Below, one piece after another: positions 2,106 to 62,240 of a stretch of 64,000 bases of DNA; within the stretch, counting starts at the first letter, position 1, and each line of letters begins with the position of its first letter. The stretch comes from Candidatus Omnitrophota bacterium (GTDB lineage Bacteria; Omnitrophota; Gorgyraeia; Tantalellales; Tantalellaceae): contig JBDRBG010000116.1 of NCBI GenBank assembly GCA_043823005.1, positions 3,989 to 67,988 of the forward strand. The letters run 5' to 3'. Below the pieces are notes generated by a model. The model was not told where the DNA came from. It was given only the letters and a program-made list of their open reading frames with translations, and searched no databases. The position numbers were made by a program, and so were the translations under genes.

Positions 2106-2287
2106 TGGTGTTTGGTGAATAATAGTTGGTGAATGGTTGATGGCGAACAGAATGAAGGGCGGGACAGGTTTACTGTAGTAGTGTAAACCTAGGATTAAAC
2201 CCGTCCCATGTATTTTTATTTCTATTTGTCTTTGCGAGGAGGAACGAAGTGACGACGCGGCAATCTCGGGGAGAATAAGAGTTTTTT

Positions 2288-3214
2288 ATGGAAAAAAATT
2301 TGTTAAAAGATTATAAAATAGGCATACTAGCCGGGGGAAGTTCTCACGAGAGAGCAGTAAGTCTTAAAAGCGGAACTGCTGTTAAGCTTGCGCTGGAAAG
2401 AATAGGGCTTAACGTAATATTTCTTGATGTAAAAGAAGAGACTTTTTGTGCTTTGATAGATGAAAATAATATAGATGTGGCTTTTATTGCTTTACATGGG
2501 AAGTTCGGTGAGGATGGAACGGTTCAGCGGATACTTGAAGCGAAAAACATTTTGTATACAGGATCCGGGCCGGATGCGTCAGGCCTTGCAATGGATAAAC
2601 TGAGGTCTAAAAAGGTATTTGAAACCAGTGCGATTTCTATCCCCGGTTATCAAGCTTTGTCTAAGGATCAAGATATAAATTCGGTTGATATAGGTTATCC
2701 GTGCGTTGTTAAACCTGTAAACGAAGGATCAAGTATAGGCCTTTCAATTGTTCTGTCTGAAAGTGTTATGGCAGACGCTATTGATAAGGCGCGTGTTTTT
2801 GGCGGGGAGGTTATAATTGAAAAATTTATCGAAGGCCGAGAGTTGACCATAGGGGTACTTGATAATGTTCCCCTGCCTGTTGTAGAAATAATAACTGCGT
2901 GCGGCATTTATGATTTTAAAGCTAAGTATGAGTCTTGCAGTACAAGGTATGTTGTTCCGGCCGACTTGAATGAAATATCTTGTAAGTATTTGCAGGGAAT
3001 CGGACTAAAGGCCCATCGAGCGCTTGGATGCAGGGGTTTTTCCAGGGTGGATGTCAGGATGGACGCGGATGGACAAGCGTATGTTCTTGAAGTAAATACT
3101 ATTCCCGGACTTACTGAAAGAAGTTTATTTCCTATGGCGGCAAAAGCAGGCGGATTTGATTTTTCTCGGTTATGTATTAAAATGTTATATGAGGCAGTTA
3201 GTCGGGCTGAGTAG
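2288..3214 (+). CDS. ddl: D-alanine--D-alanine ligase
   Basis: 308 aa ATP-grasp protein: KIGILAGGSSHEREVSLKSG N-terminus and C-terminal EVNTIPGLT. Confidence 0.88.
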   Translation: MEKNLLKDYKIGILAGGSSHERAVSLKSGTAVKLALERIGLNVIFLDVKEETFCALIDENNIDVAFIALHGKFGEDGTVQRILEAKNILYTGSGPDASGLAMDKLRSKKVFETSAISIPGYQALSKDQDINSVDIGYPCVVKPVNEGSSIGLSIVLSESVMADAIDKARVFGGEVIIEKFIEGRELTIGVLDNVPLPVVEIITACGIYDFKAKYESCSTRYVVPADLNEISCKYLQGIGLKAHRALGCRGFSRVDVRMDADGQAYVLEVNTIPGLTERSLFPMAAKAGGFDFSRLCIKMLYEAVSRAE

Positions 3215-3465
3215 AAGGCAATAGATGCAATTCGTTCGTCGTTGGTCGTTCGTCGTTAGTAGGAGCCCTTTGGCGAGGGCGAACAGAATGAAGGGCAGGA
3301 CAGGTTTACTGTAGCAGTGTAACCCTAGGCTTAAACCCGTCCCATGTATTTTTATTTCTATTCGTCATCGCGAGGAAGAACGAAGTCGAAGGGGAGTGCG
3401 GTCCGCCAGAGGCGGATCCGCCTTTGGCGGACAAACTAGGATAGAAGAAATATGAAGGAGGAAAT

Positions 3466-4248
3466 GTGGCGAAAGGCAGAAAAAAAAAGAAAAGAGTGGA
3501 AGCTGAACTTATCGAAGAAAATCCAATAGGAAGGTATATGATGATTTTATTTCTTTGTATTACTTTGATGGCAGGTATTTTTTTCGCGATGCGCCATTTT
3601 TTTCTTAATAGCACTTTTTTTGAAGTGAAAAAAGTTTTTATTAACAATGACCGATACTATCCTTTTATCAAAGAAAATGAGAAGAAACTTCAAGAACTTT
3701 ATGCGGGGCGTAATATTTTCAGTATAAATCTTAATCATGTGAAAATGCTTGCCCGGGAAGATTTTTCCGAATTGAAAAATATAGAAGTAAGTAAGGTTTT
3801 CCCGAATGGAATCAAATTTGATATGGTTACCAGGACGCCTGTTGCGATTATAAGCAGTGCTGATATTGTGATAGATTCGGAAGCAATAGTCTTGGACCGA
3901 CAGGAAAAAAGGGAAGGACTTATAGAAATAAGGGGATTAAACTTTTTTTTGAGAACACCTAAAAAAGGACAAAAGATAAAAAGCAGGGTATTGGATAAAG
4001 TTCTTTTTTTGATAGGAGTTTTGCAGCAGAATATAATAGAGGATAAAACAGTAGTTGAGTATATAGATATTTCGGAAAAGAATAATATTCTTTTCAGTCT
4101 TAATGGTGTAACTATAAAAATGGGTGAAGATGATTTTTTAAGAAAGGCCGGTGTGTTAAGAGAAATTTTAATAGATCCGGATATGGACGTGAATGATATG
4201 AATTATATTGATTTGAGATTTGAAGAGCCGGTAATATCGTTGAAATAG
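3466..4248 (+). CDS. ftsQ: Cell division protein FtsQ/DivIB (POTRA)
   Basis: GTG start 4 nt after AAGGAGG. Lys-rich cytoplasmic N-terminus, one TM helix (MMILFLCITLMAGIFFAM), periplasmic POTRA-like region. Position between ddl and ftsA. Confidence 0.75.
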   Translation: MAKGRKKKKRVEAELIEENPIGRYMMILFLCITLMAGIFFAMRHFFLNSTFFEVKKVFINNDRYYPFIKENEKKLQELYAGRNIFSINLNHVKMLAREDFSELKNIEVSKVFPNGIKFDMVTRTPVAIISSADIVIDSEAIVLDRQEKREGLIEIRGLNFFLRTPKKGQKIKSRVLDKVLFLIGVLQQNIIEDKTVVEYIDISEKNNILFSLNGVTIKMGEDDFLRKAGVLREILIDPDMDVNDMNYIDLRFEEPVISLK

Positions 4249-4453
4249 GATAAAAACAGCTTATTTGGAATAATTTTACAAAAATTAAGTGTTTTGCAAA
4301 ATACAATTTTCACGTCTTTGCGAGGAGCGGAGCGACGCGGCAATCTCAATAAACATAATGTTTTTATTGAAATTGGTTCATTAGTCGCGAGGCTGAATCA
4401 GAGACAAATAAGCTGTTCTGCAGGGGCCATACAAAAATTGTAAAAGGAGGAAA

Positions 4454-5506: not shown

Positions 5507-5624
5507 TGCTTGATACTTTGTAAAAAATTAATGGGACCTACTTTCAGCCGGGGTTTATACTTTTGCGGGAAACCTGTTGTATATGCTCAGTAAATGGGTA
5601 ACATTTTTAAGATACGATTATTTT

Positions 5625-5753
5625 GTCTTTGCGAGGGAAGAGAAGTAATCTCAATAGAAATAAAAGAGATTGCCGCGCCGTTCGCATGGCTCACGGCTCG
5701 CAAAGACGGGAAAATTGTCTTTGCGAGGGAGCAAGAGCGACCGCGGCAATCTA
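5625..5753. repeat. MITE-like palindromic element, family R1 (GTCTTTGCGAGG...GCGGCAATCTC units in inverted orientation)
   Basis: Forward unit, its reverse complement (GAGATTGCCGCG...CTCGCAAAGACG) and a second forward unit, back to back. Confidence 0.75.
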
Positions 5754-6171
5754 AACAATAATATAGTTTAGTTATAATTAATATTGTTATTATTATTTAA
5801 TATTAATGTGCTCATTTCATGAGTTCGCAAAGACGTTACGACACAGTTTAAATGACGACAGACTGTTTCAAGCAATAAGTTTTCCCTAAAAACTGTTACT
5901 TAATGGTTGAGCACGTACACCTGTCTCGTTTGTGTTTCTGATGCTTACAGGTGAGTTCTCTCTGACCTAAAAAGCCGCCTAAGAGCCAGTTGAAAATCAA
6001 ACTTTTCTTTATTCTTAATGCGTCAATATTCGCCTGAATATTTAAGCTGTTTTTTTTGAAAAAGTTTGCTGGATTATAATTTTAAGCATAACATTGACTT
6101 TACCATTAAAGTGTGATAATTTTAACCAGTAACTATCTCTAAATAATAAGATTATATACAAGGTGTATTTT

Positions 6172-7520: not shown

Positions 7521-8380
7521 ACAGGATCGGGATAATCGGGGGACGCGCGCTTTATGATATAGAGGGGATCTCTTTAATCGAAAGAAAACAAATTGAGACT
7601 CCGTTTGGAAAACCGTCGGATGAGTTTGTGATAGGAAAGATAGCAGATAAAGAATGTGTTTTTGTCCCAAGACACGGATCTAAACATTCTCTTTTGCCTA
7701 ATGAAATAAATTATAGAGCTAATATATATGCGTTAAAAGTACTCGGGGTTGACCGGATCTTATCTGTTTCTGCCGTAGGCAGTTTAAAAGAAGAAATACG
7801 GCCTTTAGATGTAGTGCTTGTGGATCAATTTGTGGATAGGACAAATCAGGCAAGAAAGACTACTTTTTTTGGGGACGGAATGGTAGCGCATGTTTCATTC
7901 CGGGATCCGGTCTGTTCCAAACTAAGAGAACTTATTTACAAAAGTAACCGAAAGTTAGACTTAAAGATACATGATGGAGGAACGTACGTAAATATGGAAG
8001 GCCCGGCTTTTTCCACAAAAGCTGAATCGTATCTTTATAAAAGCTGGGGTATGGATATTATAGGCATGACTAATATGCCTGAGGCGCGGTTAGCAAGAGA
8101 AGCCGGTATATGTTATGCTACTATGGCAATGGTTACGGATTATGACTGCTGGTATTTAGGGGCGGAGGTTGAACATGTTTCTGTTGATATGGTAATGGAA
8201 AATCTTAAAAAGAATATAAAAGCGGCTAAACTTATGCTGCGTAATACAATAGCGAATATGCCGGAAAAGTGGGAATGCGGTTGTTCCGAGGCACTTAAGG
8301 ATGCTATTGTAACACGGGCTGAAGCTGTTCCGGCGGAAACAAAAGATAAATTAAGGCCGATTATTAAGGGATTTGTTTGA
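7517..8380 (+). CDS. mtnP: S-methyl-5'-thioadenosine phosphorylase
   Basis: IGIIGG...FGKPSD...FVPRHG...NYRANIYALKVLGV...SVSAVGSL, hallmark MTAP/PNP-family motifs. Confidence 0.85.
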   Translation: MNRIGIIGGRALYDIEGISLIERKQIETPFGKPSDEFVIGKIADKECVFVPRHGSKHSLLPNEINYRANIYALKVLGVDRILSVSAVGSLKEEIRPLDVVLVDQFVDRTNQARKTTFFGDGMVAHVSFRDPVCSKLRELIYKSNRKLDLKIHDGGTYVNMEGPAFSTKAESYLYKSWGMDIIGMTNMPEARLAREAGICYATMAMVTDYDCWYLGAEVEHVSVDMVMENLKKNIKAAKLMLRNTIANMPEKWECGCSEALKDAIVTRAEAVPAETKDKLRPIIKGFV

Positions 8381-8521
8381 TTAGTCGTTGGTTGTTAGTC
8401 GGGAGTCGTTCGTAGCGGCCCTCTTGCAAGGGCGAACGAAAAAGGGAAAAAGGATAAAGGAAAAAGTGAAAAGTCCAGAAAAATGGACCACAGAAACATA
8501 AAAAGAGGTGGAAGGTAGAGA

Positions 8522-13074: not shown

Positions 13075-13309
13075 GGTACAAAAACACGGTTGGGACAAAC
13101 AGGTTCTCTGCGGAGGTATACATAGTGGGGGGACACGCTGATAAGCACCTGTTGCCGTGTTGCTCGAAAATAGCGCACGGTTCGCAAAGACAAAAAAAAC
13201 CGTCTTTACGAGGAGAATAGCGGTTCATTCGTCTTTGCGAGGAGCGAAGCGACGAAGCAATCTCAATAAAAGTAAAAAATTTTCAACAGTACGGAGGCCG
13301 GAATACGAT

Positions 13310-18358: not shown

Positions 18359-20134
18359 GTGACGCGCGATATGCGAAAAAAATGTTGCGATAATTCTTGC
18401 AGAGTTTATATGATGACGCGGATTAAGATATATAGTTTGATATTGTTCGTAAATTTGTGTGTTCTTCTGTCAGGCCTTGTGTATATTCAAATAGCAATGC
18501 ATGACAGATATAAGGTTATGTCAGAGGAAAACAGGCTTAAAGTGGTTCCTATGATGGCGCCGCGCGGACGCATTTTGGACAGAAAAGGAAATGTTCTGGC
18601 AAAAGATGTTTTATGCTTTAAAGTGTCTGTTATCTACGATCGCATAAAAGATATCGGATCGCTTGCTGATTCATTAAGCGCGGTTTTAGATATTCCGGTC
18701 GATAAAATAATTAAGGACATAAAAGAAGGAAGAAAACAACCTTATTCTCCGCTTTGTATCGTTTCTGATATAGGTCTTAATAAAGCTATTCCAATAGAAG
18801 AACTTACTATGAATCAGCCCGGTCTTTTATTGGAAGTGTCTAGCCGGCGAGAATATCTTAATGGATCGTCCTGCTCGAATGTTCTGGGATACGTAGGATT
18901 CATAAACCGTTCTGAATTTGAGAAAATGCGGCATTATGGTTTTGAAATAAACGATCTGGTTGGAAGGGATGGGATAGAAAAATATTATGATAACTATCTT
19001 CGGGGTAAACACGGTGGAAAACAGGTTGAAGTGGATCATCGCGGACGTAAGATTGCTATTCTGGGATTAAAAGAACCTATTGCCGGAAGGGATGCGTATC
19101 TTACGATAGATCTGGATTTGCAGAAATTTTGTGAAGAATTTCTCAAAGGCAGGAAAGGTGCTATTGTTGCCATGAATCCCGGGACCGGAGAGATACTGGC
19201 GATGGCAAGCGCTCCGGATTATGATCCCGGTATTTTTATTGATAACGATAAAAAAAACGAGAGAGAAAAAATCCTGCGTAGCGCTCAATATCCTTTACTA
19301 AACAGGGCTATAGCAGTGGCGTATCCTCCCGGGTCGGTTTTTAAAGCAGTAGTGGCTGTTGCCGGGCTTGAAAGTAAAATAGTTTCTGAGCAAAAAACTT
19401 TTGTTTGTCCGGGGTATCTTGAATTGGGGAAATGGCGATTCGGGTGTTGGCGTAAAAATGGGCATGGGCCCCAGTCTGTAACCAGCGCTCTTAAAAATTC
19501 ATGTAATGTATACTTTTTTAATCTGGGCCTTTTACTTGGAGTTGACCGGATAGCGCAATTTTCGGAACGTTTTGGTTTTGGTCTTAAGGCAGGAATAGAT
19601 CTGCCCGGGGAGAACAAAGGAAACAGACCTACAGCCGCCTGGAAAAAGAAAAAAATAAAAGAATCCTGGTATAAAGGCGATACAGTTAATTATTCAATCG
19701 GGCAGGGGTATCTTTTAGTTTCGCCTTTACAGATAGCCCGCATGATGTCGGTTTTTGCTAATGGAGGGTATTTGGTAAAGCCCTATCTTGTTACAAGAAT
19801 AGAGGATATTTCTATGAACCGCGCGGAAAAGGTTAATCTGAGAATCTCAGGAGAAAATCTGGAAATAGTAAGACAGGGCTTAAAGAAAGTAGTTAATGAT
19901 TCTCGCGGTACAGGAATGAATGCCAGGTTAAATGAAATAGTAGTTGCAGGGAAAACCGGTACCGCGCAAACTTCAGAGGAAAAAAACCACGGATGGTTTG
20001 CCGGGTTTGCTCCGTATGATAATCCAAGTCTTACTGTTGTTGTTTTTGAAGAATACGGAGGCAGGGGAGGATACTTTCCGGCTGAAACAGCAAGAGATAT
20101 ATTTCAACGGGCCAGGGAGCTGGGAATAATTTAG
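18359..20134 (+). CDS. mrdA: Penicillin-binding protein 2 (elongasome transpeptidase)
   Basis: SxxK (GSVFKAV), SxN (SCNVYF) and KTG (AGKTGTAQ). The ORF-track start is a GTG inside a 16-bp palindrome; the true start is probably a downstream ATG (~18371 or ~18410). Confidence 0.85.
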   Translation: MTRDMRKKCCDNSCRVYMMTRIKIYSLILFVNLCVLLSGLVYIQIAMHDRYKVMSEENRLKVVPMMAPRGRILDRKGNVLAKDVLCFKVSVIYDRIKDIGSLADSLSAVLDIPVDKIIKDIKEGRKQPYSPLCIVSDIGLNKAIPIEELTMNQPGLLLEVSSRREYLNGSSCSNVLGYVGFINRSEFEKMRHYGFEINDLVGRDGIEKYYDNYLRGKHGGKQVEVDHRGRKIAILGLKEPIAGRDAYLTIDLDLQKFCEEFLKGRKGAIVAMNPGTGEILAMASAPDYDPGIFIDNDKKNEREKILRSAQYPLLNRAIAVAYPPGSVFKAVVAVAGLESKIVSEQKTFVCPGYLELGKWRFGCWRKNGHGPQSVTSALKNSCNVYFFNLGLLLGVDRIAQFSERFGFGLKAGIDLPGENKGNRPTAAWKKKKIKESWYKGDTVNYSIGQGYLLVSPLQIARMMSVFANGGYLVKPYLVTRIEDISMNRAEKVNLRISGENLEIVRQGLKKVVNDSRGTGMNARLNEIVVAGKTGTAQTSEEKNHGWFAGFAPYDNPSLTVVVFEEYGGRGGYFPAETARDIFQRARELGII

Positions 20135-20338
20135 CCGTTAGTCGGGGGTCGTTTGTCGTTAGTCCAGAGGAGGGGCGGTTTGCGAACCGCCTTGATAAGA
20201 AAAAAGGATAAAGGGGAAAGTTAGAGTTGTTTGAAATTTGGACAACAAGGTCCCGCCTGAGGCGGGTAGACTGGGACGGGTCTCCTGTGGAAGTGTAAAC
20301 TCTAGCAGAGAGTAAGTCCCATTAATTTTTATTTTTAT

Positions 20339-20600
20339 TCGTCATTGCGAGGAGCGCCCGCCGAAGGACGGGTCCAGTCTACCCGCCTCTGGCGGAAAGC
20401 GACGCGGCAATTTCAAATGGAAAAGCCCCATCCGTCTTTGCGAGGGAGCGAGAGCGACCGCGGCAATCTCAATAATAATATAGTTTCTCACAAAATTTAT
20501 ATTTTTATTGCTACATGAGATTGCTTCGCCCATTCTCGTTTCCTATTCCCCATTTTTATGGGGACAAGCTTCATGGTCTCGCAAAGACGTTGCGACACAG
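20339..20600. repeat. Cluster of R1 units forming a palindromic element
   Basis: CGTCATTGCGAGGAGCG...GCGGCAATTTC, then CGTCTTTGCGAGGGAGCGAGAGCGACCGCGGCAATCTCAATAATAATATAG...GAGATTGCTTCGCC...CTCGCAAAGACG. Confidence 0.75.
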
Positions 20601-20695
20601 CCTGATTGCGAGTCCTGAGTTTGTCGTCCACCGGAGTCGGATTTGCTTAGGCAGAGAGGGCGAAGCAATTTATTGGGAGATACAAAGGTGAAAAT

Positions 20696-21790
20696 ATGAT
20701 CAATTTAGGAAGAGGACGGATAGATAAACTTTTGCTGTTTTCAATGATGATGATATCTGCTTTGGGAATAATTTTTATTTACAGTGCTACATGGAGCAAA
20801 TCAGCCGTGGCTCAAACTGATATGATGGTGATTAAACAAAGTTTATGGGTATTTGTCGGCATGATTTTTCTTATTGTGATTGTGAACATGGATTATCTCA
20901 GGATATTAAATTTTGCTTATATTGTTTATGGATTAAATCTTTTGGCTCTTGTCTTTCTTCTTTTTTTCGGAGGCGAAAGGTATGGCGCAAGGAGGTGGAT
21001 AGCATTAGGGCCGATTTCTCTTCAACCGTCTGAATTTATGAAGATTACGGTAATTCTGGCTTTATCTGCTTTTCTTGGAGACCGCAGGGAAAAGATCGGT
21101 AGTCTTAAAAATTATATCGGCGCTCTTGTTCTAATAGCTCCCGCGGTAATTCTTATTTTTCTTCAGCCTGATCTGGGTACGGCTTTTGTGCTGGTACCGA
21201 TACTTTTTTCCATTTTATTTATATGCGGGGAAAATATAAAACACATTATTTTTACAATTGCCGCGGGGTTAAGTTGTCTGCCGTTTTTTTGGACTCTTTT
21301 GAAGGAGTATCAAAGAAACAGGTTAATGGTTTTTTTAAGGCCTGATTTAGATCCTTTAGGAGCGGGTTACACCATAATGCAGTCCAAAATAGCAATAGGT
21401 TCAGGCGGGTTGTTTGGAAAAGGATGGTTGAATGGGTCACAGTGCTATCTTAGGTTCCTTCCTGAAAGGCATACGGATTTTATATTTTCTGTGATAGGCG
21501 AAGAATGGGGGTTTTTAGGAGCCGTTATTTTAATCGGGCTTTATGTATTATTTATAGCGCGGGGAATAAAGATATTGCATAAGAGTGATGATATTTATGG
21601 TAAAGCTATAGCTGCCGGCGTTGTAACGCTAATAGCTTTTCAGGTAGTAGTGAATATATCCATGACCATAGGTTTAATGCCTGTGGTTGGATTGCCTCTT
21701 CCGGCTATAAGTTACGGAGGGTCAAACACTGTTACTTTTTTTATAGCCGCGGGGTTTTTGTTAAGTATAAGCCGCAGAATTAGTCGTTAG
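20696..21790 (+). CDS. rodA: Peptidoglycan glycosyltransferase RodA (SEDS family)
   Basis: 364 aa FtsW/RodA/SpoVE-family polytopic protein. Follows mrdA. Confidence 0.85.
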   Translation: MINLGRGRIDKLLLFSMMMISALGIIFIYSATWSKSAVAQTDMMVIKQSLWVFVGMIFLIVIVNMDYLRILNFAYIVYGLNLLALVFLLFFGGERYGARRWIALGPISLQPSEFMKITVILALSAFLGDRREKIGSLKNYIGALVLIAPAVILIFLQPDLGTAFVLVPILFSILFICGENIKHIIFTIAAGLSCLPFFWTLLKEYQRNRLMVFLRPDLDPLGAGYTIMQSKIAIGSGGLFGKGWLNGSQCYLRFLPERHTDFIFSVIGEEWGFLGAVILIGLYVLFIARGIKILHKSDDIYGKAIAAGVVTLIAFQVVVNISMTIGLMPVVGLPLPAISYGGSNTVTFFIAAGFLLSISRRISR

Positions 21791-21851
21791 TCGGGAGTCG
21801 TTAGTCGGGAGTTGTTCGTCGTTAGTAGTATATGGGATATATAGCAATATT

Positions 21852-23725: not shown

Positions 23726-24235
23726 TGAATGAAAAGTGTAAACTTTTTTAGAACGATACAAGGAAGTAGTTGGTTGGTGAATAGTGAATGGTTGATCGAG
23801 GCTTAACCTGAAAACATAAAAAATGAAAAGGAGGGACATGCCTGTAAGCGGCGCAGTTCACAACATATCAACTTAGAGTGTTTCTGCTTTGTCATTGCGC
23901 GAAGGAGCCAAAGGCGACGACGCGGTAATTTCTATTCACCATGTACCAACTACTGTTCGCTTTTTTAAAAACCGATTTCCAGATTTTTCACCACAGAGTC
24001 TCTGAGGCACAGAGCCATTCAAAATCCAAAAATATCTTTTTTTTCTCGTCTCAGTTTATTTCTCCCTCAGTGTCTCTGTGCTCTCTGTGGTTATTTTTTC
24101 TTTTTATTCTATTTCTATTCGAGTTTGCCGCGTCGCTACGCTCCTCGCAATGACGGATGGGAGTTTGCCGCATCGCCCCTTTGGGGCTCCCGCAATGACG
24201 GTCTTCTCCGTCTTTGCGAGCGAAGCGAAGCCCTA

Positions 24236-24305
24236 CCAATGCTCTTATTCATCGCATTTCCAGGATCATTTTTCGTTATTCACAAAAAATGTCAATCTCT
24301 TTTTT
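24236..24305. repeat. Left copy of a ~70-bp inverted-repeat pair bracketing the pilus locus
   Basis: CCAATGCTCTTATTCATCGCATTTCCAGGATCATTTTTCGTTATTCACAAAAAATGTCAATCTCTTTTT. Its reverse complement recurs at 40921-40989 with 2 mismatches. Confidence 0.8.
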
Positions 24306-24567
24306 TCTTCAGCCTTCAACCTTGAACCTTGAACGGCTCCGAAGGAGCCTTAACGCGACCGCGGCAATCTCCCTCAAAAAATGTACAAACCTGTTGTATT
24401 CGATATCCCTTTCTTATAATATATTACTATTTCTCTTCCAATTTTGACTTTTAATTTTTCCTCATGTATTATTAATAATACATTAAGGTTATAACTGTCC
24501 CATACAGTTAATGTTTTATTTAATTTTGGGACAGAAAATTATATTTATAATATATAGGAGGTGTTTT

Positions 24568-25983: not shown

Positions 25984-26068
25984 GACATGTGTAACGCGTA
26001 AGAAAAATTATTTTTGAACTAAAGTTATGAAAAATGCATTTTTTACGTCATTTAAGCTGTGTCATAAC

Positions 26069-26215
26069 GTCTTTGCGAGCCCATGAAATGGGCGAAGCAA
26101 TCTCAAATAGCAATAAAAATATAAATTTTATGGGTAAACTACATTATTATTGAGATTGCCGCGGTCGCTTTAGCGCCCTCGCAAAGACAGAATTTGAATT
26201 GCGACACAGGCTGAA
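26069..26215. repeat. R1 palindromic element (~125 bp plus conserved tail)
   Basis: CGTCTTTGCGAGCCCATGAAATGGGCGAAGCAATCTCAAATAGCAATAAAAATATAAATTTTATGGG...TTGAGATTGCCGCGGTCGC...CTCGCAAAGAC. Near-identical copy at 43970-44091. Confidence 0.8.
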
Positions 26216-26273
26216 TGACAAATAAGTTATTTTGAAAAAGTCTAATTTTTTAACAAAAAAGGAGAAAAGAAAA

Positions 26274-33296: not shown

Positions 33297-33349
33297 TTAG
33301 GAATAAGAAGTAAAATGACATTTTACTGTGCCGTTCAGGCTGTGTTGCA

Positions 33350-33555
33350 ACGTCTTTGTGAGGGTAGCGAAGCGACCGCGGCAATCTCTCCCGCGTCTTT
33401 GCGGAGGAGTGAAACGACTGAAGCATCTCTATAATATGGTTCCCCCATAACATTTATATTATTACTGCTATCAAGATTGCTTCGCTATGCTCGCAAAGAC
33501 GAAGAGAAATTGAGATTATCCAGTCTGTTGCGGACAAAGTGAAGCAATCCGGCTT
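33350..33555. repeat. R1 units (direct plus inverted) between the two pilin genes
   Basis: CGTCTTTGTGAGGGTAGCGAAGCGACCGCGGCAATCTC, GCGTCTTTGCGGAGG...AAGCATCTC, then AAGATTGCTTCGC...CTCGCAAAGACG and further arm fragments. Confidence 0.7.
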
Positions 33556-36135: not shown

Positions 36136-36340
36136 TGAATAGGGAATAGTGTCTTGTCCTAAAAATAGAGGAAGGGAGATTGCCGGCTTGTAGCCCGCAA
36201 TGACAGAAGGGGGTCGTCATTGCGAAGGCCGAGCCAGCCGAGGCCTGTGGCAATCTGTTATGTAAAAGTGTTTAATTTTTAATAACGATACAAGGTGCAA
36301 AGATGCTTGATTTTTTTTAACATCTAATCCAGTCTTAACC

Positions 36341-40989: not shown

Positions 40990-41137
40990 GATGGTCATGC
41001 TTCTCGCATGGCTCGAAGCTCGCAAAGACAAACTTTCGTCATTGCGAGGAGCGTAAGCGGCGCGGCAATCTCGAAAAAAATGTATATAGACCTGTTGTAC
41101 ACGATGTACGACATTTTATACACGATATACGATAAAT

Positions 41138-41437: not shown

Positions 41438-41439
41438 TG

Positions 41440-41700
41440 AATAGTGTCATTTGTTCCGTCCTGAAAAAGGTAGGATGAGAGTTGCAAGGTATTTTGCTGG
41501 AAGGGCAAGCATTCCGTGCTCAAACAATTTGCCCTCACTTGGTTCGGGCAAAAACTGCGCTCAGAACGCTCGCCCTTCCAGCAAAATAGCGGTTGGTGAA
41601 TAGGAAAAGGGGAAAATATCCCATCTGTCTTTGCGAGGAGGAACGAAGTGACGACGCGGCAATCTCGGATAAAAAAAGATAAAAAAAGTGACAACTGTTT
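41440..41700 (+). repeat. ~250-bp composite repeat R3, copy 1 (long conserved hairpin plus R1 unit plus TAGGACGATACAAG tail)
   Basis: Colinear with 59757-60010 at about 90% identity. Core hairpin CTGGAAGGGCAAGCATTCCGTGCTCAAACAATTTGCCCTCACTTGGTTCGGGCAAAAACTGCGCTCAGAACGCTCGCCCTTCCAG. Confidence 0.8.
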
Positions 41701-41732
41701 TAGGACGATACAAGCGGCAGAGTTGTTAGTAG

Positions 41733-41752: not shown

Positions 41753-41820
41753 TGATAAAAATAAAAGATGTAAGGGCAGACCGTATGTCCGCCCGAAAAA
41801 GTATAAACTAAAGGAATGTA

Positions 41821-43853: not shown

Positions 43854-43969
43854 GCTTCGCAATGTCTTTGCGCGTACACGCAACTGACTAGTACCCTGAC
43901 AACGTTAAAATGAAGAATAATTTTGTCAGTTATCTTACTCTGTCATTCTCGCGAACAGACTGTATTATA

Positions 43970-44110
43970 ACGTCTTTGAGAGCCCATGAAATGGGCGAAG
44001 CAATCTCAAATAGCAATAAAAATATAAACTTTATGGGTAATCCCTATTATTATCGAGATTGCCGCGGTCGCTCTTGCTCCCTCGCAAAGACGAAATTTGA
44101 ATTAAGATAC
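43970..44110. repeat. R1 palindromic element (paralog of 26069-26215)
   Basis: Same sequence with a few substitutions. Creates the spurious ORF 43910..44134. Confidence 0.8.
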
Positions 44111-44214
44111 AGCCTAGAAAACGGGAATCTATAGAATGGTACTTTTCATTTTTAGATTGTCGAGGTGCTAGTGTCATGGCAGCAGTAAACAAAGAAAACG
44201 AATCAGGGGTAGTA

Positions 44215-48493: not shown

Positions 48494-48568
48494 TTTTTCA
48501 ACAGTAGTTAGTTGGTTTTAGTTCGTAATTGGTGTGGACAAACAACGAATTTGAATTGGGAGCTTTTT

Positions 48569-50758
48569 ATGAATATAAAATTTTTACGGAACATAAAAGG
48601 AACAACCCTTGTTGAGACTATGTTTGTGGTGATAATATACGCTATGATCATAGTAGCTATTTTATCAATATGGACATATACTTCAAGATCATGGAATACG
48701 GAAAATGAACGAACGTGTTTAAGAATAGATCTTCTTAAAGCTTTGGAAACTTTAAAAGAAGATCTTAGAGTATCAAGCCTTACTTATATGAGTTTTTATC
48801 CTGAAGGAGGAGAGCCGTATACAGCATTTAGTTTGCCTGTGCCAAAGATAGATGCAAGCGGTTTTTTGGTCCTTAATGCAAATGACGAAATAGTTTGGGA
48901 CAAAACTGTAGTCTATCATATTTATTCGGAAACAGACGAAACTCAGACTTTAAGACGCACGGTTTTGAGCCCAAGGAACAATGCTCTTTCAGATTTGCAA
49001 AGAAAACAGCAATTAGAGTGTATAGTGGCCGGAGGTACCGGAGGAGGAACAGCTGTTACAGATGAAGAGTTTCTTAAAAATCTAGAAGTTTTTGATATTT
49101 CTTCTTTATCTTCAATAATAGATTTTTATTATAATGCCGAGAGTCCGGTAAAAGCCGGAAAGATCATGTTCGGACGCGTTAAATTGGATCCCGGGGATCA
49201 TATTATACGGTTTGAAGTGACTGGAAAAAATACCGATTCTTTGGGGTATGACCTGGGTATTGACAGTATATCGATTGAACCGAGCGGTAGTACAAGGGAA
49301 ATGGAATATTACAACTCGGGTTTTGCTCCTTCGGGTATTCTTTCTTTAAGCGGAGGAAGTGTTCAAAGAATAAACGATCCTTTATGGGGAAATAATAATT
49401 ATCTGAAATTTACTGCTTCAGCAATAGGAAGCTATTTAGAGATAACCGATTATTATGACTTATGGCGAGAATCTTCGTTTGATAATGCCATTTTAAATAA
49501 CTCAGAGACAACAGGCGAAGAAGTTTGTGTTGAAATAGATTTTCCCGAAGGTGATCGGGAAGAAAGGATCACCTGGTATGCTTTTTCAGAGGCAGAGGAT
49601 GATGTTATGGAAGGCAATAATGGGGCTATTTTAGGAGGGATAATACCGCCTGTTACTATACGTACGGTTATTACGCGGGACAATATCGATGTTGAAGGAG
49701 ATATGGTCAGTGTTAAAATTTTGGCTTCGGATAATAACGATCTGGTTATAGACAGGGCATATATAACAAAAAGGGACGGTATTAGCGGGGCTAATGGTTT
49801 GGCTAATCAGGATCCCGGAGTTTTAAGTGTGGAAGAATATCACAGGCATCAACAGTTGTTTTTTGAAGACGGTGACGGGGAAATAAAAGAAGGGGTCACT
49901 GTGCCTGCAGGACAAGAAGTCTGGTGCGAGTGGACTGCTTTTCCGTTAAGGATCGATAGCGATTATTTTGTTACGATTTATTTGTCTGATGCCGTTTCTT
50001 TGGAAGGTAAATACTGGTCGGGAACAGAAGGAGAGGAGCGTAGTTATTATGTAGCAGGCGCGGATAATACAATTGCCGGAACTCCTGATTGGAGCGGGAA
50101 GGGCCCGGTTGCTTTAAAGGATATATATCTAGTCGGGAAGATTGATCTTAAATCCGGCAAAGGTACTGTTGAGTCTCAGATATTTGACTCAACATTAAGC
50201 GCGCCTTCATATGACAAGATAAAGTGGTCGGAAAATAAACCCGCAGGCACAAATATTACATTAAAAGCGCGTTCTTCCGGTAATGAATATATGCAAGATG
50301 CCGCGGATTGGGATTCAATAACAGGTTCAGCAGTAAATCCTCATACGATTAGTATCGGTAATGGCCGATATGTCCAGTTTTTTGCGGAATTATCAGCTAA
50401 TCTTTTTTGGATAAATTCCAGCGGAACAGGGCAACTTAGTTATGAAGCTTATATAAGGGATCAAATAACCCGTCCTGTATATGAATTTCCACAGAATAGC
50501 GGAGAATTTTTAGTTACTTCATATTTTTCTCCGAGCATAGATGATGTTGAGATAAACTGGCCCGGACAGAGTAGGATCTGCGCTATTACAGGATATATAG
50601 CTAAAAAAAAGGACTATGGACAGGCAAAGATCACGGTTGACGGCAGTGAACTTATACAGACCTTAAATATTCATGTGAAAGTATCAAAAGAAATAAGCGG
50701 AATGATGGTTGAAGAAGAAAACTATGTGGAAATAGAGCCAAAGAACACGGGAAAATAA
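48569..50758 (+). CDS. Large (~730 aa) prepilin-leader protein, cassette 2
   Basis: Leader MNIKFLRNIKG then TTLVETMFVVIIYAMIIVAIL. Colinear paralog of 44215..46401 (shared blocks TYMSFYPE, TQTLRRTV, YITKRDGI, EEYHRHQQLFF, KIKWSENKP). Confidence 0.7.
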   Translation: MNIKFLRNIKGTTLVETMFVVIIYAMIIVAILSIWTYTSRSWNTENERTCLRIDLLKALETLKEDLRVSSLTYMSFYPEGGEPYTAFSLPVPKIDASGFLVLNANDEIVWDKTVVYHIYSETDETQTLRRTVLSPRNNALSDLQRKQQLECIVAGGTGGGTAVTDEEFLKNLEVFDISSLSSIIDFYYNAESPVKAGKIMFGRVKLDPGDHIIRFEVTGKNTDSLGYDLGIDSISIEPSGSTREMEYYNSGFAPSGILSLSGGSVQRINDPLWGNNNYLKFTASAIGSYLEITDYYDLWRESSFDNAILNNSETTGEEVCVEIDFPEGDREERITWYAFSEAEDDVMEGNNGAILGGIIPPVTIRTVITRDNIDVEGDMVSVKILASDNNDLVIDRAYITKRDGISGANGLANQDPGVLSVEEYHRHQQLFFEDGDGEIKEGVTVPAGQEVWCEWTAFPLRIDSDYFVTIYLSDAVSLEGKYWSGTEGEERSYYVAGADNTIAGTPDWSGKGPVALKDIYLVGKIDLKSGKGTVESQIFDSTLSAPSYDKIKWSENKPAGTNITLKARSSGNEYMQDAADWDSITGSAVNPHTISIGNGRYVQFFAELSANLFWINSSGTGQLSYEAYIRDQITRPVYEFPQNSGEFLVTSYFSPSIDDVEINWPGQSRICAITGYIAKKKDYGQAKITVDGSELIQTLNIHVKVSKEISGMMVEEENYVEIEPKNTGK

Positions 50759-50759
50759 A

Positions 50760-51971
50760 ATGATGTCAAAGAATCCGAAAAATAAAAGAACTGAAAAGCG
50801 TCAAAAAGGAACCATACTTATTTTGGTCATGGCGTTTTTGGCGTTAATGGCTTTGACTACGATCTCTTTAGCGACTTTAGTTCAGCAGGATGTTAAACTT
50901 ATCCAGTGTGTCAGAGATACAGAGCAAGCCCGTTTTATGGCAGAGGCGGGCATAAACCACGCTATTGCAAATCTTAAAAAAAATAATTTTAGTTCGCGTT
51001 CAGCTTTTAGCGGGACAATGGATACCGGCAGTTATTCTGTGGAATACGGGGCATTGAACTCAAGCGGAAGATTAATAGTGTCGTCTACCGGGACGGCTTC
51101 AGGAGTGTCAAAGACTGTTTGTATGGAAATAAGCAGTAATATGCCTACAGCTTTGTATTATTTCGCGGGCGCCGGAAATGATATTTATATTAATTCTATA
51201 TTATCTCATTCGGTTATAAACGGGGATATTCATGCCAATGGGAGCGTATTTTTAAAATCAAATCGTTTCTTGTCAAGTTTGACTATTGCAGGAGATGTTT
51301 CTGCGTCCGGGACTGTCAAAGAAGGGACCAGGTATAATACAGGAGATAATGATAACTGGGATAATAAGGTGACAATAAATGAAAACGCTAATGATACAGC
51401 TGAAGTATATGAAGGAGAAGAACAAATAACGTTTCCTGTTTTTGATTATCAAAAATATAAAGACGCGGCAATAGCGTCAGGGGATTATTATGCTTCGGAT
51501 CAGGAGTTTGACAATAGTACTCTTTCTCCTGCTAATGGAATAGTTTATGTTGACGGAGATGTGACGTTTTTTGGGACGTGTACATTAAACGGAGGTATAA
51601 TTGCGAAAAATATATATGTCGGAGGATTTGAAATGGTTAAAGTTCTCTGGTGGTGGGTATCCGTATATAAATATGGAAGATTGGATCAACAGAAGACTCA
51701 AAACAACAGAAACGTAATTATTTCTAAAGAGGGAAATATTTTAATATACGGCCCTTTAAACGTCCAGGAAGCATTGGTTTACTCGTCAGGAGATATTGAA
51801 ACTATGAACGCAGGCGCGGATGTAAATATTAATGGTATTATATTGGCAGGCACGGATATATCAATGTGGAATTTTGTTTGTCAATTAGATTATAATTATA
51901 TTTATTTAGAACCGGAGGATATGCAGGGCGGAGGAGGCGATGATACCTTTAGTATTGTAGGTTGGACATAA
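50760..51971 (+). CDS. PilX/GspK-like minor pilin, cassette 2
   Basis: KGTILILVMAFLALMALTTISLATLVQQDVKLIQCVRDTEQARFMAEAGINHA. Paralog of 46398..47594. Confidence 0.65.
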   Translation: MMSKNPKNKRTEKRQKGTILILVMAFLALMALTTISLATLVQQDVKLIQCVRDTEQARFMAEAGINHAIANLKKNNFSSRSAFSGTMDTGSYSVEYGALNSSGRLIVSSTGTASGVSKTVCMEISSNMPTALYYFAGAGNDIYINSILSHSVINGDIHANGSVFLKSNRFLSSLTIAGDVSASGTVKEGTRYNTGDNDNWDNKVTINENANDTAEVYEGEEQITFPVFDYQKYKDAAIASGDYYASDQEFDNSTLSPANGIVYVDGDVTFFGTCTLNGGIIAKNIYVGGFEMVKVLWWWVSVYKYGRLDQQKTQNNRNVIISKEGNILIYGPLNVQEALVYSSGDIETMNAGADVNINGIILAGTDISMWNFVCQLDYNYIYLEPEDMQGGGGDDTFSIVGWT

Positions 51972-54954: not shown

Positions 54955-55152
54955 TTGTTGGTGTCGTTAGTCAGTTAGTCGTTAGTCGGGAGTCGTTAGT
55001 CAGAGATTGCTTCGCTTCGCTCGCAAAGACGGACTTTCGTCATTGCGAGGCCTGAGGGAGAGGCGGATCCGCATATTAAAGCGGAAAGGCCGCGGCAATC
55101 TCAGTGAAAGTGATCGATTATAAGGAAATTATAGATAAAGGGGAACTAAGAT

Positions 55153-56412: not shown

Positions 56413-56518
56413 CTAGTCGTTAGTCGTTTGTCGTTAGTCGTTAGTTGGTCGTTTGTAGTTACAATGGAGCGGTCTCCCGACCGCGAACAAAAAGAAGTAA
56501 AAAGGAAAAAGAGAAACA

Positions 56519-56567: not shown

Positions 56568-56790
56568 AAACTAAAGGACCAAAACTAAAAATATAAAACT
56601 AGGAAAGAGATGCTTTTTTAGATTTGGAGCTTTGAGGATTAGGATTTTTTTTATTTCGTCATTCAGGTTGTGCCGCAATTCAAATTCTGTCTTTGCGCGG
56701 GAGCAAGAACGACCGTGGCAATCTCAATAAAAGGAAAAGGGAAGAGGAAAGGGATAACGGGCAACCGTCAACTAAACAACCGGGGGTAAA

Positions 56791-57688: not shown

Positions 57689-57720
57689 GCTATTTTTGGT
57701 CAAAGGGAAGATATACAACT

Positions 57721-59756: not shown

Positions 59757-60010
59757 ATAGTGAATGGTGTCTTGTCCTGACATAGCTTGGGGGAGAAAAA
59801 GCAAAGTATTTTGCTGGAATGGCAAGCATTCCGTGCTCAAACAATTTGCCCTCACTTGGTTCGGGCAAAAACTGCGCTCAGAACGCTCGCCCGTCCAGCA
59901 AAATAGAGGTTGGTGAATAGGAAAAAGGGAAAACATCCCATCCGTCTTTGCGAGGAGGAACGAAGTGACGACGCGGCAATCTCGGATAAAAATAGATAAA
60001 AAAACTGTCA
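59757..60010 (+). repeat. R3 composite repeat, copy 2 (between argS and mfd)
   Basis: See copy 1; same module order. Confidence 0.8.
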
Positions 60011-60138
60011 ACTTTTTCAGGACGAAACGTAGCTATGATCGTCCTATTTACTATTCACCATTCACTAAGAAATTCCACACCTGTTTCCTGAGCAGTGAGT
60101 TTTTTCAAGCGGACAGCAGGTAAATTTTATAACAGACT

Positions 60139-62046
60139 ATGTTTAATTCCATTAAGTTTTATGTGGACGAACAAGCGGATCCGGATGAAATAATCGCGGC
60201 CTTGGATGATTTCGGATATTCCAGATGTTCAAAAGTATCTGTTTGCGGAGATTACAGCCTAATCGGAGAAACTCTTATAATCTATCCGGTTACTTTTGAA
60301 TATCCTGTCAGGATAGACATTTTTGACGCTAAGATCCAATCGATAAAAAGTATTGATGTTGTATCTTTCAAGACTATTATGCCGCATAAAGGCGTAATGA
60401 TTTTGCCTGTTGGGGCATTAAGGCGAAAAAAGGTAAAAAAGCATCTTGAAGGTATTGAAGAGCAGCCGATCGACTCTTTTGTAGATATAGAACCCGGTGA
60501 TTTTACCGTTCACATAGATTATGGTATCGGTAAATATTTAGGTATGCAGAGGATGCGACGCAACAGCGGGTTAAAAGATTATTTTGTAATAGAATATAAA
60601 GACGGCGATAAACTTTATGTAGATAGTAAGGATCTCGATAAACTTCAAAGATATATATCATTTCACAGAAGGCCTCCGACTCTTAATAAGCTAAGAGGTA
60701 AAAAATGGCATCAGACTAAAGTAAAAGCTTTTAAGGGCGCCGCTTCCGCGGCAGAAGAAATACTTTCAATGCAGGCAAAAAGAGAAAGATGCAAAGGGTT
60801 TGCTTTTAGCCGGGATGCGGAATGGCAGAAACAAGTAGAAGAAGAATTTCCATATCGGGAGACTCCTGATCAGCTGAGAGCTACACAGGAAGTTAAAAAC
60901 GATATGGAGAAATTAAAACCTATGGACAGACTTTTGTGCGGAGATGTCGGTTATGGAAAAACCGAAGTTGCTTTAAGAGCCGCTTTTAAGGCGGTTATGG
61001 ACGGTAAACAGGTTGCTTTTTTAGTGCCTACGACGATTCTTGCCGAACAGCATACCAATACTTTTCGCAATCGATTGAAATCTTTTCCCGTAAAGATAGA
61101 AATGCTTAATCGGTTTAGGACGCAGAGCGAACAAAAGCGTGTGCTTGCTGATATTAAGAACGGTAAGGTGGATATAGTTATCGGAACTCACCGGATTCTT
61201 TCCGGTGATGTTGAATTTAAGGATCTGGGGCTTTTGATAATAGATGAAGAACAGCGTTTCGGGGTTAAACATAAAGAAAAAATCAAAAAAATGAGGATAA
61301 ATGTAGATGTGCTTACGCTTACAGCTACACCGATTCCCCGGACTTTATATTTGGCGCTGATGGGGGGTAAGGATATTTCCATAATAGAAACGCCTCCGCT
61401 ACAAAGACTTCCGGTTAAAACAGAAATTATTGAGTATGACAGAGAAGAAATACGTGACGCGATTAAGCAAGAAATAGAACGAGGCGGACAGGTATATTAT
61501 GTCCACAATAGAGTAGAAACAATAGACAAAATAGCTGATGAAGTAAAAAAACTGGTTCCTGAAGCGGATCTCATAGTAGGGCACGGACAAATGAGTTCAA
61601 AGGTTTTGGAAAAAAACATGATAAAGTTTATAAAAGGAGAGACAGATATATTAGTCTGTACTACAATAATCGAGTCAGGAATAGATATTCCTAACGCGAA
61701 TACAATAATAATAGATAATGCCGATAAATTTGGGTTGGCCGGGTTGTATCAACTTAGAGGAAGAATCGGAAGGTTTGATAAAGAGGCGTATGCTTATTTA
61801 GTTGTAAGGGATTTTTCTATTCTTACTCATGAGATTCAAAAAAGATTGCATGCAATAAAAAAATACCAGGAATTAGGATCCGGGCTTAAAATCGCGATGC
61901 GGGATCTGGAAATGAGAGGCGCGGGAAATCTTCTTGGGTTTGAGCAGAGCGGGTTTATAGATCAAATAGGGTTTGATCTATATTGCAGGCTTTTAAAAAT
62001 GGAGATACAAAGACAGCGTAATTCGTCTTTGCGAGGAGCCCCATAG
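60139..62046 (+). CDS. mfd: Mfd-like transcription-repair coupling factor, short form (635 aa; lacks N-terminal D1a/D1b/D3 and C-terminal D7 equivalents)
   Basis: UvrB-homology segment (LIGETLIIYP...PVRIDIFDAKIQSIKSID), RNAP-interacting-like segment, SF2 motifs GDVGYGKTEV, DEEQRFG, TATPIPRT, QLRGRIGR and TRG-like LEMRGAGNLLGFEQSG. In-frame stop immediately upstream; the stop codon lies inside a repeat unit. Confidence 0.75.
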   Translation: MFNSIKFYVDEQADPDEIIAALDDFGYSRCSKVSVCGDYSLIGETLIIYPVTFEYPVRIDIFDAKIQSIKSIDVVSFKTIMPHKGVMILPVGALRRKKVKKHLEGIEEQPIDSFVDIEPGDFTVHIDYGIGKYLGMQRMRRNSGLKDYFVIEYKDGDKLYVDSKDLDKLQRYISFHRRPPTLNKLRGKKWHQTKVKAFKGAASAAEEILSMQAKRERCKGFAFSRDAEWQKQVEEEFPYRETPDQLRATQEVKNDMEKLKPMDRLLCGDVGYGKTEVALRAAFKAVMDGKQVAFLVPTTILAEQHTNTFRNRLKSFPVKIEMLNRFRTQSEQKRVLADIKNGKVDIVIGTHRILSGDVEFKDLGLLIIDEEQRFGVKHKEKIKKMRINVDVLTLTATPIPRTLYLALMGGKDISIIETPPLQRLPVKTEIIEYDREEIRDAIKQEIERGGQVYYVHNRVETIDKIADEVKKLVPEADLIVGHGQMSSKVLEKNMIKFIKGETDILVCTTIIESGIDIPNANTIIIDNADKFGLAGLYQLRGRIGRFDKEAYAYLVVRDFSILTHEIQKRLHAIKKYQELGSGLKIAMRDLEMRGAGNLLGFEQSGFIDQIGFDLYCRLLKMEIQRQRNSSLRGAP

Positions 62047-62240
62047 GCTGACGCGGCAATCTGTTTGGTGAATAGCGTTTTGTTCTAAAAATAGACAGTA
62101 GAGAAAAAGATATAACGGCGCACCTGGAAGGGCAAACATTCCGTGCTCAAACAGTTTGCCTTCACTTGGTTCAGGCAAAAACTGCGCTCAGAACGCTTGC
62201 CCTTCCAGATGAAAAGTGTAAACTTTTTTAGGACGACACG
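62047..62240 (+). repeat. R3 composite repeat, copy 3 (between mfd and the PPIase gene; modules permuted)
   Basis: Same hairpin core with a compensatory change (TTTGCCT...AGGCAAA versus TTTGCCC...GGGCAAA in copy 1). The R1 unit precedes it and overlaps the mfd stop. Confidence 0.75.

Follow-up and report, generated by a model that had tools for sequence, protein, structure and literature searches.

The closest described relatives of the repeat analysed here are bacterial repeats known as REPs (repetitive extragenic palindromes), for which Di Nocera, De Gregorio and Rocco defined GTAG- and CGTC-tagged superfamilies (2013, BMC Genomics 14:522; PMC3733652). As the consulted parts of that article describe them, CGTC REPs carry an unpaired CGTC (or TGTC or CCTC), stems opening with A/T pairs, and a 3-nt tail with the consensus CCA. 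They occur mostly as inverted heterodimers, the spacers of which can be conserved, and they have no associated transposase. They are found in distant phyla, with occasional copies within repair and pseudouridine-synthase genes. The same parts assign Neisseria dRS3 (a CGTC-1 REP) and Rickettsia RPE-4 and RPE-6 to the superfamily, and give the four defined CGTC families continuous 8-9-bp stems with 4-5-nt loops. We analysed a short repeat, R1, in a 64-kb stretch (the window) of a metagenome-assembled genome (MAG) of Candidatus Omnitrophota with a GC content of 39%. Our data indicate that R1 is the local population of CGTC-tagged REPs, and thus belongs to a class of element that is already known. 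It is a hairpin, constrained in its structure and asymmetric between the strands, that was added to intergenic gaps and is linked to no gene. Most likely this hairpin element is non-autonomous, works in the form of single-stranded DNA and is propagated in trans.

R1 shares with the CGTC REPs of the consulted parts the CGTC tag with TGTC variants, the short 3' tail and, at least in part, the stem opening with A/T pairs (ATT..AAT). Both are intergenic elements of high copy number that occur predominantly as inverted heterodimers, with spacers that may be conserved, lack a linked transposase and occur in distant phyla. Gene-end copies are also common to both, and R1 units overlap the 3' end of mfd (62024-62046) and the called 5' end of an RluD-like pseudouridine synthase gene (13157-13265), which belong to the two gene classes named above. 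R1 differs from them in its foot of 4-5 bp, its GA/GAA internal loop and a variable hairpin at the apex that mostly bears a 3-nt GNA loop. The tail in the window is CTC and not CCA, and two thirds of the window units have T, not A, at the first stem position. Tag, tail, dimers and lack of a transposase agree with the superfamily, but the loop of 4-5 nt does not, because the commonest R1 loops are 3-nt GNA. The consulted parts of the text and supplements do not mention the R1 stem ATTGCGAG, and Omnitrophota is not among the hosts that they name. Since the first four features agree and the stem and loop sizes do not, R1 is filed as a further member of the CGTC superfamily, arguably a structural variant. 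An earlier reading of the window made from the letters alone (the sequence-only reading) had proposed a REP-like repeat or a non-autonomous element. Judged by tag, foot, tail, inverted dimers and the lack of a linked transposase, it was right in kind.

The number of R1 units in the window is far beyond chance. The left box CGTCTTTGCGAGGAG, with up to two mismatches, has 14 matches against 0.05 expected, and the right box CGCGGCAATCTC, with up to one mismatch, has 17 against 0.19. A combined pattern finds 26 complete units compared with 1.2 in block shuffles, and reading of the gaps adds about eight units that are partial, half, degenerate or split. The true density is about one unit per 2 kb; the sequence-only reading gave more than one per 4 kb. 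All 17 positions listed there hold an R1 unit or a recognisable fragment (half units at 3364 and 13181), and its observation of the repeat holds. Its statement that R1 occupies nearly every intergenic gap went too far: of the 27 gaps that measure 100 nt or more, 16 (about 60%) carry units, as does the region 13075-13265, which gives 17 among 39 gaps in total. The units stand solo, in direct tandem (13201/13231, 24121/24161 and 33351/33394), as six convergent heterodimers, as four divergent pairs, or as modules of longer mosaics (Table 1). This includes the single, tandem and inverted arrangements noted before. The small open reading frames (ORFs) that had been attributed to R1 are present as well (...LRSSQ, RHCEERSD.. 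or RHCEERSDAANS, APRNDG and LLAMT).

A consensus was pooled from 120 distinct units (306 occurrences) of the window and the fetched loci. It reads 5'-(C/T)GTC, (A/T)TTGC, GA, G, a variable apical stem-loop, C, G(A/C/T)(A/G), GCAA(T/A), C(T/C)(C/A)-3'. Among the 26 complete window units the 5' tag is CGTC in 19 and TGTC in 7, and the 3' tail is CTC in 21; the proteobacterial matches mostly end in CCA(G). The basal stem or foot, (A/T)TTGC:GCAA(T/A), has 4-5 bp and is followed by the GA/GAA internal loop and 2-8 further pairs. This purine loop is conserved, with GA opposite GAA, GCG or GTG. At the first stem position 19 window units have T and 7 have A, and almost every unit elsewhere has A. Two unit centres, GAGCGNAGCGAA and GAGGAGCGNAGCGACGAA, dominate, and the middle base of their GNA is the sole variable position. 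At least 20 distinct apical stems of 4-8 bp were found, all of them paired (for example GCCCAT/ATGGGC, GTCCCGA/TCGGGAC and GGCCAC/GTGGCC). Centres have on average 2.28 consecutive apical pairs, compared with 0.51 (maximum 0.70) after shuffling. The commonest apical loops are the 3-nt GNA forms GAA, GCA, GTA and GGA; others have 4-11 nt or bear inserts. The apical stem is thus free to vary provided that pairing persists, and the tag, the foot and the purine loop are conserved.

Tandem 5'-GA/3'-AG mismatches pair in the sheared form, and the mini-hairpin d(GCGNAGC) has an exceptional stability. On the basis of this chemistry we infer that the foot, the G.A loop and the apical hairpin form solely on the purine-rich CGTC strand, which alone would be the structured one. 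The GA/GAA loop would then be a set of tandem sheared G.A pairs, and GCGNAGC would be a GNA mini-hairpin. RNA energy parameters support this in part: the proposed fold has -6.9 kcal/mol for the CGTC strand, compared with -2.4 for the complementary one. Where the apical stem is of the Watson-Crick kind, units are predicted to take the drawn fold, with -8 kcal/mol and z down to -4.7. A kink-turn was considered for the GA loop and rejected on inspection, as the bulge has the wrong size and lies on the wrong strand.

Comparison with relatives indicates that the R1 units are insertions. Three related Omnitrophota genomes, compared over regions of 15-21 kb, share the gene order L21-obg-proB-proA-nadD-rsfS-argS-mfd-surA with the window. 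The proA-nadD gap measures 378 nt in the window and 5, 18 and 12 nt in the relatives. The corresponding values are 382 nt versus 140-188, 40 and 44 nt for argS-mfd, and 232 nt versus -4, 94 and 68 nt for mfd-surA. Overall, orthologous gaps measure 5-190 nt in the relatives and 198-382 nt in the window. What the window has in excess is made up of R1 and further repeats. The regions of the three relatives contain no R1 except for one composite by cas2 in Ca. Makaraimicrobium. The insertion character follows from these short orthologous gaps without R1, and the conserved synteny excludes an assembly artefact, which the sequence-only reading had named as one possible refutation. It had also placed an R1 unit over the stop codon of mfd, and the unit 62024-62063 does cover it and encodes the last ~7 codons (..NSSLRGAP). 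The idea that R1 splits or truncates mfd was rejected. The gene is intact, with 635 aa compared with 613-639 aa for the orthologues in the three relatives, and the downstream ORF encodes a SurA-like peptidyl-prolyl isomerase, as it does there. In Ca. Makaraimicrobium (L121, 18586-18830), cas2 is followed by one CRISPR-like repeat, GTCGCTCCCCGCGCGGGGGGCGTGGATTGAAAC, then by the R1 composite dimer, and there is no array. The R1 unit near cas2 was considered as a CRISPR repeat and dismissed, being part of this single composite dimer.

R1 is not confined to Omnitrophota. A scan of GTDB species genomes with the 33-nt consensus CGTCWTTGCGAGGAGCGNAGCGACGNNGCAATC (30 fixed bases) gave at least 120 loci, in DNA of 37-74% GC. 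The matches listed come from alphaproteobacteria (Bradyrhizobium, Sphingomonadales, Hyphomicrobiales), beta- and gammaproteobacteria, Coxiellaceae, Desulfobacteraceae, Chloroflexi, Nitrospiraceae (Nitrospirae), Armatimonadetes, Bacteroidota, Oscillospiraceae (Firmicutes), Treponema (Spirochaetes), Daviesbacteria (candidate phyla radiation), Thermoanaerobaculia (Acidobacteria) and Omnitrophota. Among these the core is unchanged in more than 10 phyla, and it is also unchanged in viral contigs. The usual proteobacterial form among the loci listed is a convergent heterodimer with CCAG tails. In viral contigs a loose pattern of 15 fixed bases found about 20 full units among the 120 matches listed, most of the others being chance. 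A metagenome scan with a 39-mer of the window found one unrelated locus only, in two samples (Joint Genome Institute; GC about 35%). This locus (L245, 4755-4895; L246, 1341-1481) is a dimer with a first unit equal to window positions 2225-2266 over 42 nt, and the two contigs have no other DNA similarity to the window. A plasmid collection gave two matches, on Methylosinus megaplasmids, and the GenBank phage collection gave none. Literature searches with R1 sequence strings returned unrelated primer matches only. The orphan status of the CGTC core and its identity across phyla are properties of the superfamily and not of this window.

Solo copies of R1 have a polarity. By a hand count from gap maps, 12 solo units lie on the + strand of the window and 2 on the - strand (two-sided binomial ~0.013). 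All plausible genes of the window are on the + strand, and the GC skew is +0.13 to +0.31 over its entire length. The + strand is therefore the sense strand and at the same time the G-rich leading-strand sequence, which is the lagging-strand template. In viral contigs 16 of the 25 classifiable solo units are sense and 9 antisense. Viral contigs with at least three solo units are uniform in orientation, sense in L021, L027 and L084 and antisense in L070 (6/6). This polarity leans slightly towards a cause in genome polarity, at the DNA level, over an obligatory role as sense RNA.

We consider it probable, with considerable room for doubt, that R1 is the population in this genome of CGTC-tagged REP-type elements, short imperfect palindromes for which the folded single strand is what counts and which spread into intergenic DNA by copying in trans. 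By analogy with known systems, mobilisation in trans from single-stranded DNA is the most likely mechanism. An enzyme encoded elsewhere, comparable to HUH Y1 transposases of the RAYT (REP-associated tyrosine transposase) and IS200/IS605 types, would recognise the hairpin foot and the 5' tetranucleotide on single-stranded DNA at the replication fork. Its copying or moving of units would leave the target unduplicated. Inspection by eye, with no systematic search, found no obvious target-site duplications at the flanks of aligned copies, and insertion of the IS200/IS605 type likewise leaves none. Copies that are transcribed may secondarily serve as hairpins in 3' untranslated regions (UTRs).

Several observations weigh against this mechanism. 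The 64-kb window encodes no Y1, HUH or other transposase and no integrase. When 2,959 ORFs of the 120 genome loci were clustered all against all, no recurrent neighbour gene emerged. According to the consulted parts of PMC3733652, tyrosine transposases flanked by CGTC repeats were sought in many genomes and none was found. Transcription and replication are codirectional in the window, and the 12:2 bias therefore cannot tell a cause at the DNA level from one at the RNA level. The commonest centres fold poorly by nearest-neighbour DNA parameters (z 0.3 to 2), and for these canonical centres the G.A-paired structure is thus deduced and not computed. The best long repeat copies are 88-94% identical, which gives no sign of very recent activity, and the earlier suggestion of an active or recently active element gains little from it. 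A small GIY-YIG nuclease was also considered as a partner and set aside, because no recurrent gene lies beside the units in ~20 viral contigs and the 120 genome loci.

R1 might instead be a cis-acting RNA element in the 3' UTRs or intercistronic RNA of the co-directional operons of the window, such as an mRNA stabiliser, an RNase processing mark or a protein site, which is kept by selection. The mostly sense orientation of solo units in a window with every gene on the + strand would agree with such a role, and E. coli REPs are known to act in this manner. The RNA fold is better on the CGTC strand than on the complement, and the GTG variant of the internal loop permits a G.U pair on the sense strand only. 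The consulted parts of PMC3733652 argue that many REPs are transcribed. However, the orthologous gaps of the three syntenic relatives hold no units, which are therefore not conserved regulators of these genes. The antisense viral units, including all six of L070, and the antisense half of each dimer do not fit, and the sequence downstream of the hairpin is A-rich without a U-run. The window has no R1 match in Rfam at the gathering threshold, and nothing overlaps R1 even at E values up to 1, so that the known structured RNA family, which the sequence-only reading had itself kept in view, did not appear. Identity across phyla of 37-74% GC is also hard to square with local regulation. We regard this explanation as unlikely.

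The dimers, which the sequence-only reading had called MITE-like, raise the question of a classical MITE (a miniature inverted-repeat transposable element). R1 would then be the terminal inverted repeat of a MITE derived from an insertion sequence (IS) of the DDE type, with the ~160-bp composites as the mobile form and the solo units as decayed halves. Five to six copies of a composite of ~160 nt are present in the window (A, B, C, D and F in Table 1, and one half copy). They consist of an outer repeat (GTCATT)CAGNCTGTGTC..AA, a unit, an AT-rich spacer of ~50 nt with CCCATAAAAT, an inverted unit and a further outer repeat, and extend ~160-175 nt with these extra outer inverted repeats included. 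Their imperfect terminal repeats of 35-45 nt (GTCATT-CAGNCTGTGTC-..-CGTCTTTGCGAG), AT-rich core and several copies speak for a MITE. The outer CAGACTGTGTC motif is present also on the copy in Ca. Makaraimicrobium (L121) and before a unit in a Firmicutes MAG (L184). Fold prediction for the entire composite gives one long hairpin with interruptions, from which the unit centres branch off (-31.8 kcal/mol, z = -4.7). It is not the perfect palindrome of ~125 bp that had been described, but a convergent heterodimer of ~160 bp that is complementary just in the conserved boxes. Around composite A (26040-26225) complementarity is limited to short segments, one of 17 nt (82%) and two of 11 and 10 nt (both 100%), and the unit centres differ (GCCCATGAAATGGGC versus GGGCGCTAAAGCGACC). 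Composites A and B, reported as near-identical over 26069-26187 and 43970-44091, are 88% identical over 156 nt. The centres of the two paired units in a composite are always unlike, as REP heterodimers typically have them. Moreover, the supposed terminal repeat is free-standing in many phyla and occurs in tandem, in divergent pairs and within other mosaics, and dimers in most other taxa have unrelated spacers. By eye there are no obvious direct repeats flanking aligned copies, and neither the window nor the surroundings of the 120 genome loci showed a transposase bounded by such ends, although no dedicated search for an autonomous parent IS was made. A MITE origin is quite unlikely.

That R1 is primarily a recombination or insertion target for IS110-family elements, integrases or small hairpin elements, like dRS3 in Neisseria, with its abundance a by-product, is quite improbable: foreign inserts do lie exactly at the apical loop of 20340-20414 and 20517-20589, and possibly of 24209-24372 and 55038-55102, and dRS3 is of the same superfamily, but the inserts are non-coding hairpin sequences of 35-125 nt and not mobile genes, the window has no IS or integrase, and a target role leaves the multiplication of the units unexplained.

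The preferred reading, a hairpin mobilised in trans from single-stranded DNA, can be extended beyond this genome. It is possible, though doubtful, that the invariant part of R1 (CGTC tag, ATTGC/GCAAT foot and GA-GAA loop) is what an enzyme, or some universal host function, recognises when it copies such hairpins off single-stranded DNA across many phyla, phage genomes included. The strong polarity of solo units (12:2 in the window; in phage contigs uniform whatever the gene direction) would in that case be the trace that a mechanism coupled to replication has left in the orphan CGTC REPs. These REPs are without a known mobilising enzyme. The consensus architecture, the identical core in more than 10 phyla and viral contigs, and the strand polarity of solo copies sharpen this question and do not answer it.

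Table 1. R1 units, composites, accompanying repeats and other features of the window (positions within the 64-kb stretch).
Position	Strand	Feature	Details
2227..2267	+	Complete unit, TGTC tag, centre GAGGAACGAAGTGACGACGCG	3' module of ~112-nt repeat 2139-2250, also at 3275-3386
3363..3387	+	5' half unit CGTCATCGCGAGGAAGAACGAAGT	3' half replaced by GC-rich CCGCC..GGCGG hairpins
4313..4347	+	Complete solo unit	Box and combined patterns
5624..5857	.	Cluster	Short unit 5624-5652 (+), unit 5666-5708 (-), composite C
5716-5857		Composite C	Unit 5716-5753 (+), AT-rich spacer, degenerate unit ~5806-5837 (-), outer repeat to 5857
13180..13264	.	Region with a fragment and two units	Left-box fragment 13180-13192 (-), left-box-only unit 13201-13228 (+), complete unit 13230-13264 (+); inside called 5' end of pseudouridine synthase ORF, upstream of S4 domain (residue 66)
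20340..20414	+	Complete unit	Apical loop with ~40-nt nested insert (CCCGCC...GGCGGA)
20431..20612	-	Composite D	Unit 20433-20470 (+), spacer, unit 20517-20589 (-), outer repeat GACACAG
20517-20589	-	Unit of composite D	35-nt insert within GAA loop
23894..23936	+	Degenerate unit TGTCATTGCGCGAAGGAGCCAAAGGCGACGACGCGGTAATTTC	
24121..24200	-	Two units, direct tandem	24121-24155, 24161-24200
24209..24372	+	Left box and GCGAAGCGAAGC, then ~125 nt on right box GCGACCGCGGCAATCTC	Either insertion-split unit or two half units; 83 nt between the boxes recur inverted at 40921-41003 (90%)
26046..26219	+	Composite A	Outer GTCATTTAAGCTGTGTC, unit 26068-26104 (+), spacer, unit 26152-26189 (-), outer GACACAGGCTGAATGAC
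26105-26151		Composite A spacer	47 nt, AT-rich
33339..33535	.	Composite F	Outer CAGGCTGTGTTGCAA, tandem units 33351-33388 and 33394-33431 (+), spacer, unit 33473-33501 (-)
36176..36257	.	Divergent pair	36176-36205 (-), 36215-36257 (+); own Watson-Crick apical stem in each
40995..41072	.	Divergent pair	Partial unit ending 41032 (-), complete unit 41037-41072 (+)
41626..41666	+	Complete unit	39-nt core identical to 2228 and 59944; module of 228-nt mosaic 41484-41711
43957..44115	+	Composite B	Units 43971-44007 (+), 44055-44092 (-); 88% identical to composite A
55003..55102	.	Divergent pair	Short unit 55003-55031 (-), unit 55038-55102 (+) with long apical insert
56657..56725	+	One end of composite (half copy)	Outer CGTCATTCAGGTTGTGCCGCAATTCAAATTC and unit 56688-56725
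59943..59983	+	Complete unit	Inside 228-nt mosaic 59801-60028, ArgRS-mfd gap
62024..62063	+	Complete unit	Overlaps final codons and stop of mfd (..NSSLRGAP*)
41497-41581, 59814-59898, 62124-62208		85-nt palindromic element CTGGAAGGGCAAGC...GCCCTTCCAG	Copies 94-98% identical
1142-1183, 23732-23773, 36264-36305, 41684-41725, 62212-62253		Conserved module AAAAGTGTAAACTTTTTTAGGACGAnACAAGG	Related sequence at 60003-60035
23619-23717, 36040-36138		99-nt palindromic repeat	95% identical
2139-2222, 3275-3358, 20276-20335, 5523-5577 (-)		Hairpin GGGACAGGTTTACTGTAG..GTAAACCT..CCCGTCCC	Followed by T-rich run
3395-3435, 20170-20195, 20255-20270, 20357-20400, 55063-55095		Small GC-rich CCGCC-N4-GGCGG hairpins	Variable loops
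3232-3257, 20131-20164, 21780-21826, 23618-23636, 31288-31320, 54963-55003, 56414-56461		Period-7 arrays	TTAGTCG, GTTGATG, CGGTTGA
949-976, 8372-8420, 36040-36072		Further period-7 arrays	
41138-41437		DUF2344 ORF	99 aa
44176-47594, 48512-51971		Tandem duplicated gene pair	~745-aa and ~405-aa genes

The R1 units share their gaps with other repeats. The ~112-nt mosaic repeat at 2139 and 3275 has a partial copy near 20316, and the 228-nt mosaic at 41484 and 59801 is 94% identical between copies and includes the 85-nt palindrome. All three copies of this palindrome adjoin an R1 unit and lie upstream of a gene (RNase G, mfd and surA-like). The module AAAAGTGTAAACTTTTTTAGGACGAnACAAGG is found upstream of several genes, often after an R1 unit, and may be a promoter or 5'-leader element. 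The hairpin with GGGACAGGTTTACTGTAG and CCCGTCCC looks like a terminator, and at three sites it stands immediately upstream of R1 units. Some of the small CCGCC-N4-GGCGG hairpins are inserted in the apical loops of R1, a hint of a second family of tiny repeats that nest; inserts of ~35-40 nt are nested in the loops of two units, 20340-20414 and 20517-20589. The 99-nt palindromic repeat is made of GTTGAC-type heptamers and directly follows the stop codons of a radical-SAM gene and a TPR gene. Period-7 tandem arrays start at or a few bases from gene stop codons. Every heptamer contains TAG or TGA, and three copies therefore give stops in all three frames. These arrays look like a systematic gene-end feature of the genome.

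The genes of the window are housekeeping genes: murB and ddl (murein), mreBCD, PBP2, rodA, IleRS, ArgRS, mfd, a type IV pilus cluster, obg, proBA and RNase G. No tRNA is present in the window. The next relatives of its ArgRS are at most 72% identical. The tandem duplicated gene pair has ~71% DNA identity across stretches of ~230-260 nt according to the repeat finder. It has no Pfam domain apart from a weak PilX_N match, and is kept in relatives, where it adjoins pilus genes. The DUF2344 ORF matches just profile positions 1-95 of 176, and the gene appears to be 3'-truncated because the remaining gap to RNase G (41438-41820) consists entirely of repeat modules. For annotation, R1 units enlarge intergenic gaps, yield junk ORFs and distort gene ends, in this Omnitrophota MAG the C-terminus of mfd and the N-terminus of the RluD-like protein, and masking is advised.

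Among further known systems, the REPIN-RAYT system of Escherichia and Pseudomonas, with its GTAG REPs (Nunvar 2010; Bertels & Rainey 2011), resembles R1 in its short hairpins that carry a 5' tetranucleotide. Common to both are inverted doublets, which fold up as one long hairpin; both are non-autonomous, reach tens to hundreds of copies and build mosaic clusters like those of bacterial interspersed mosaic elements. The tag of R1 is CGTC or TGTC and not GTAG, by which it is not a RAYT-type REPIN, and no RAYT was found in the window. REPIN sequences are also lineage-specific and vertically inherited, whereas the R1 core is identical across phyla.

The ends of IS200/IS605 elements (IS608, ISDra2) may be compared with R1 by analogy only. 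They too have an imperfect hairpin with a nearby tetranucleotide on one strand and insert without target duplication, and their orientation bias to the lagging-strand template is the one seen in R1 solo units. R1 differs in being 30-40 nt long and in having no TnpA or TnpB gene. The small dispersed repeats (SDR) of cyanobacteria, reportedly described by Elhai et al. in 2008, differ from R1 in sequence and host phylum. They are said to resemble it in being very small, nested in each other and in hairpin loops, linked to no gene, and accompanied by heptamer tandem repeats.

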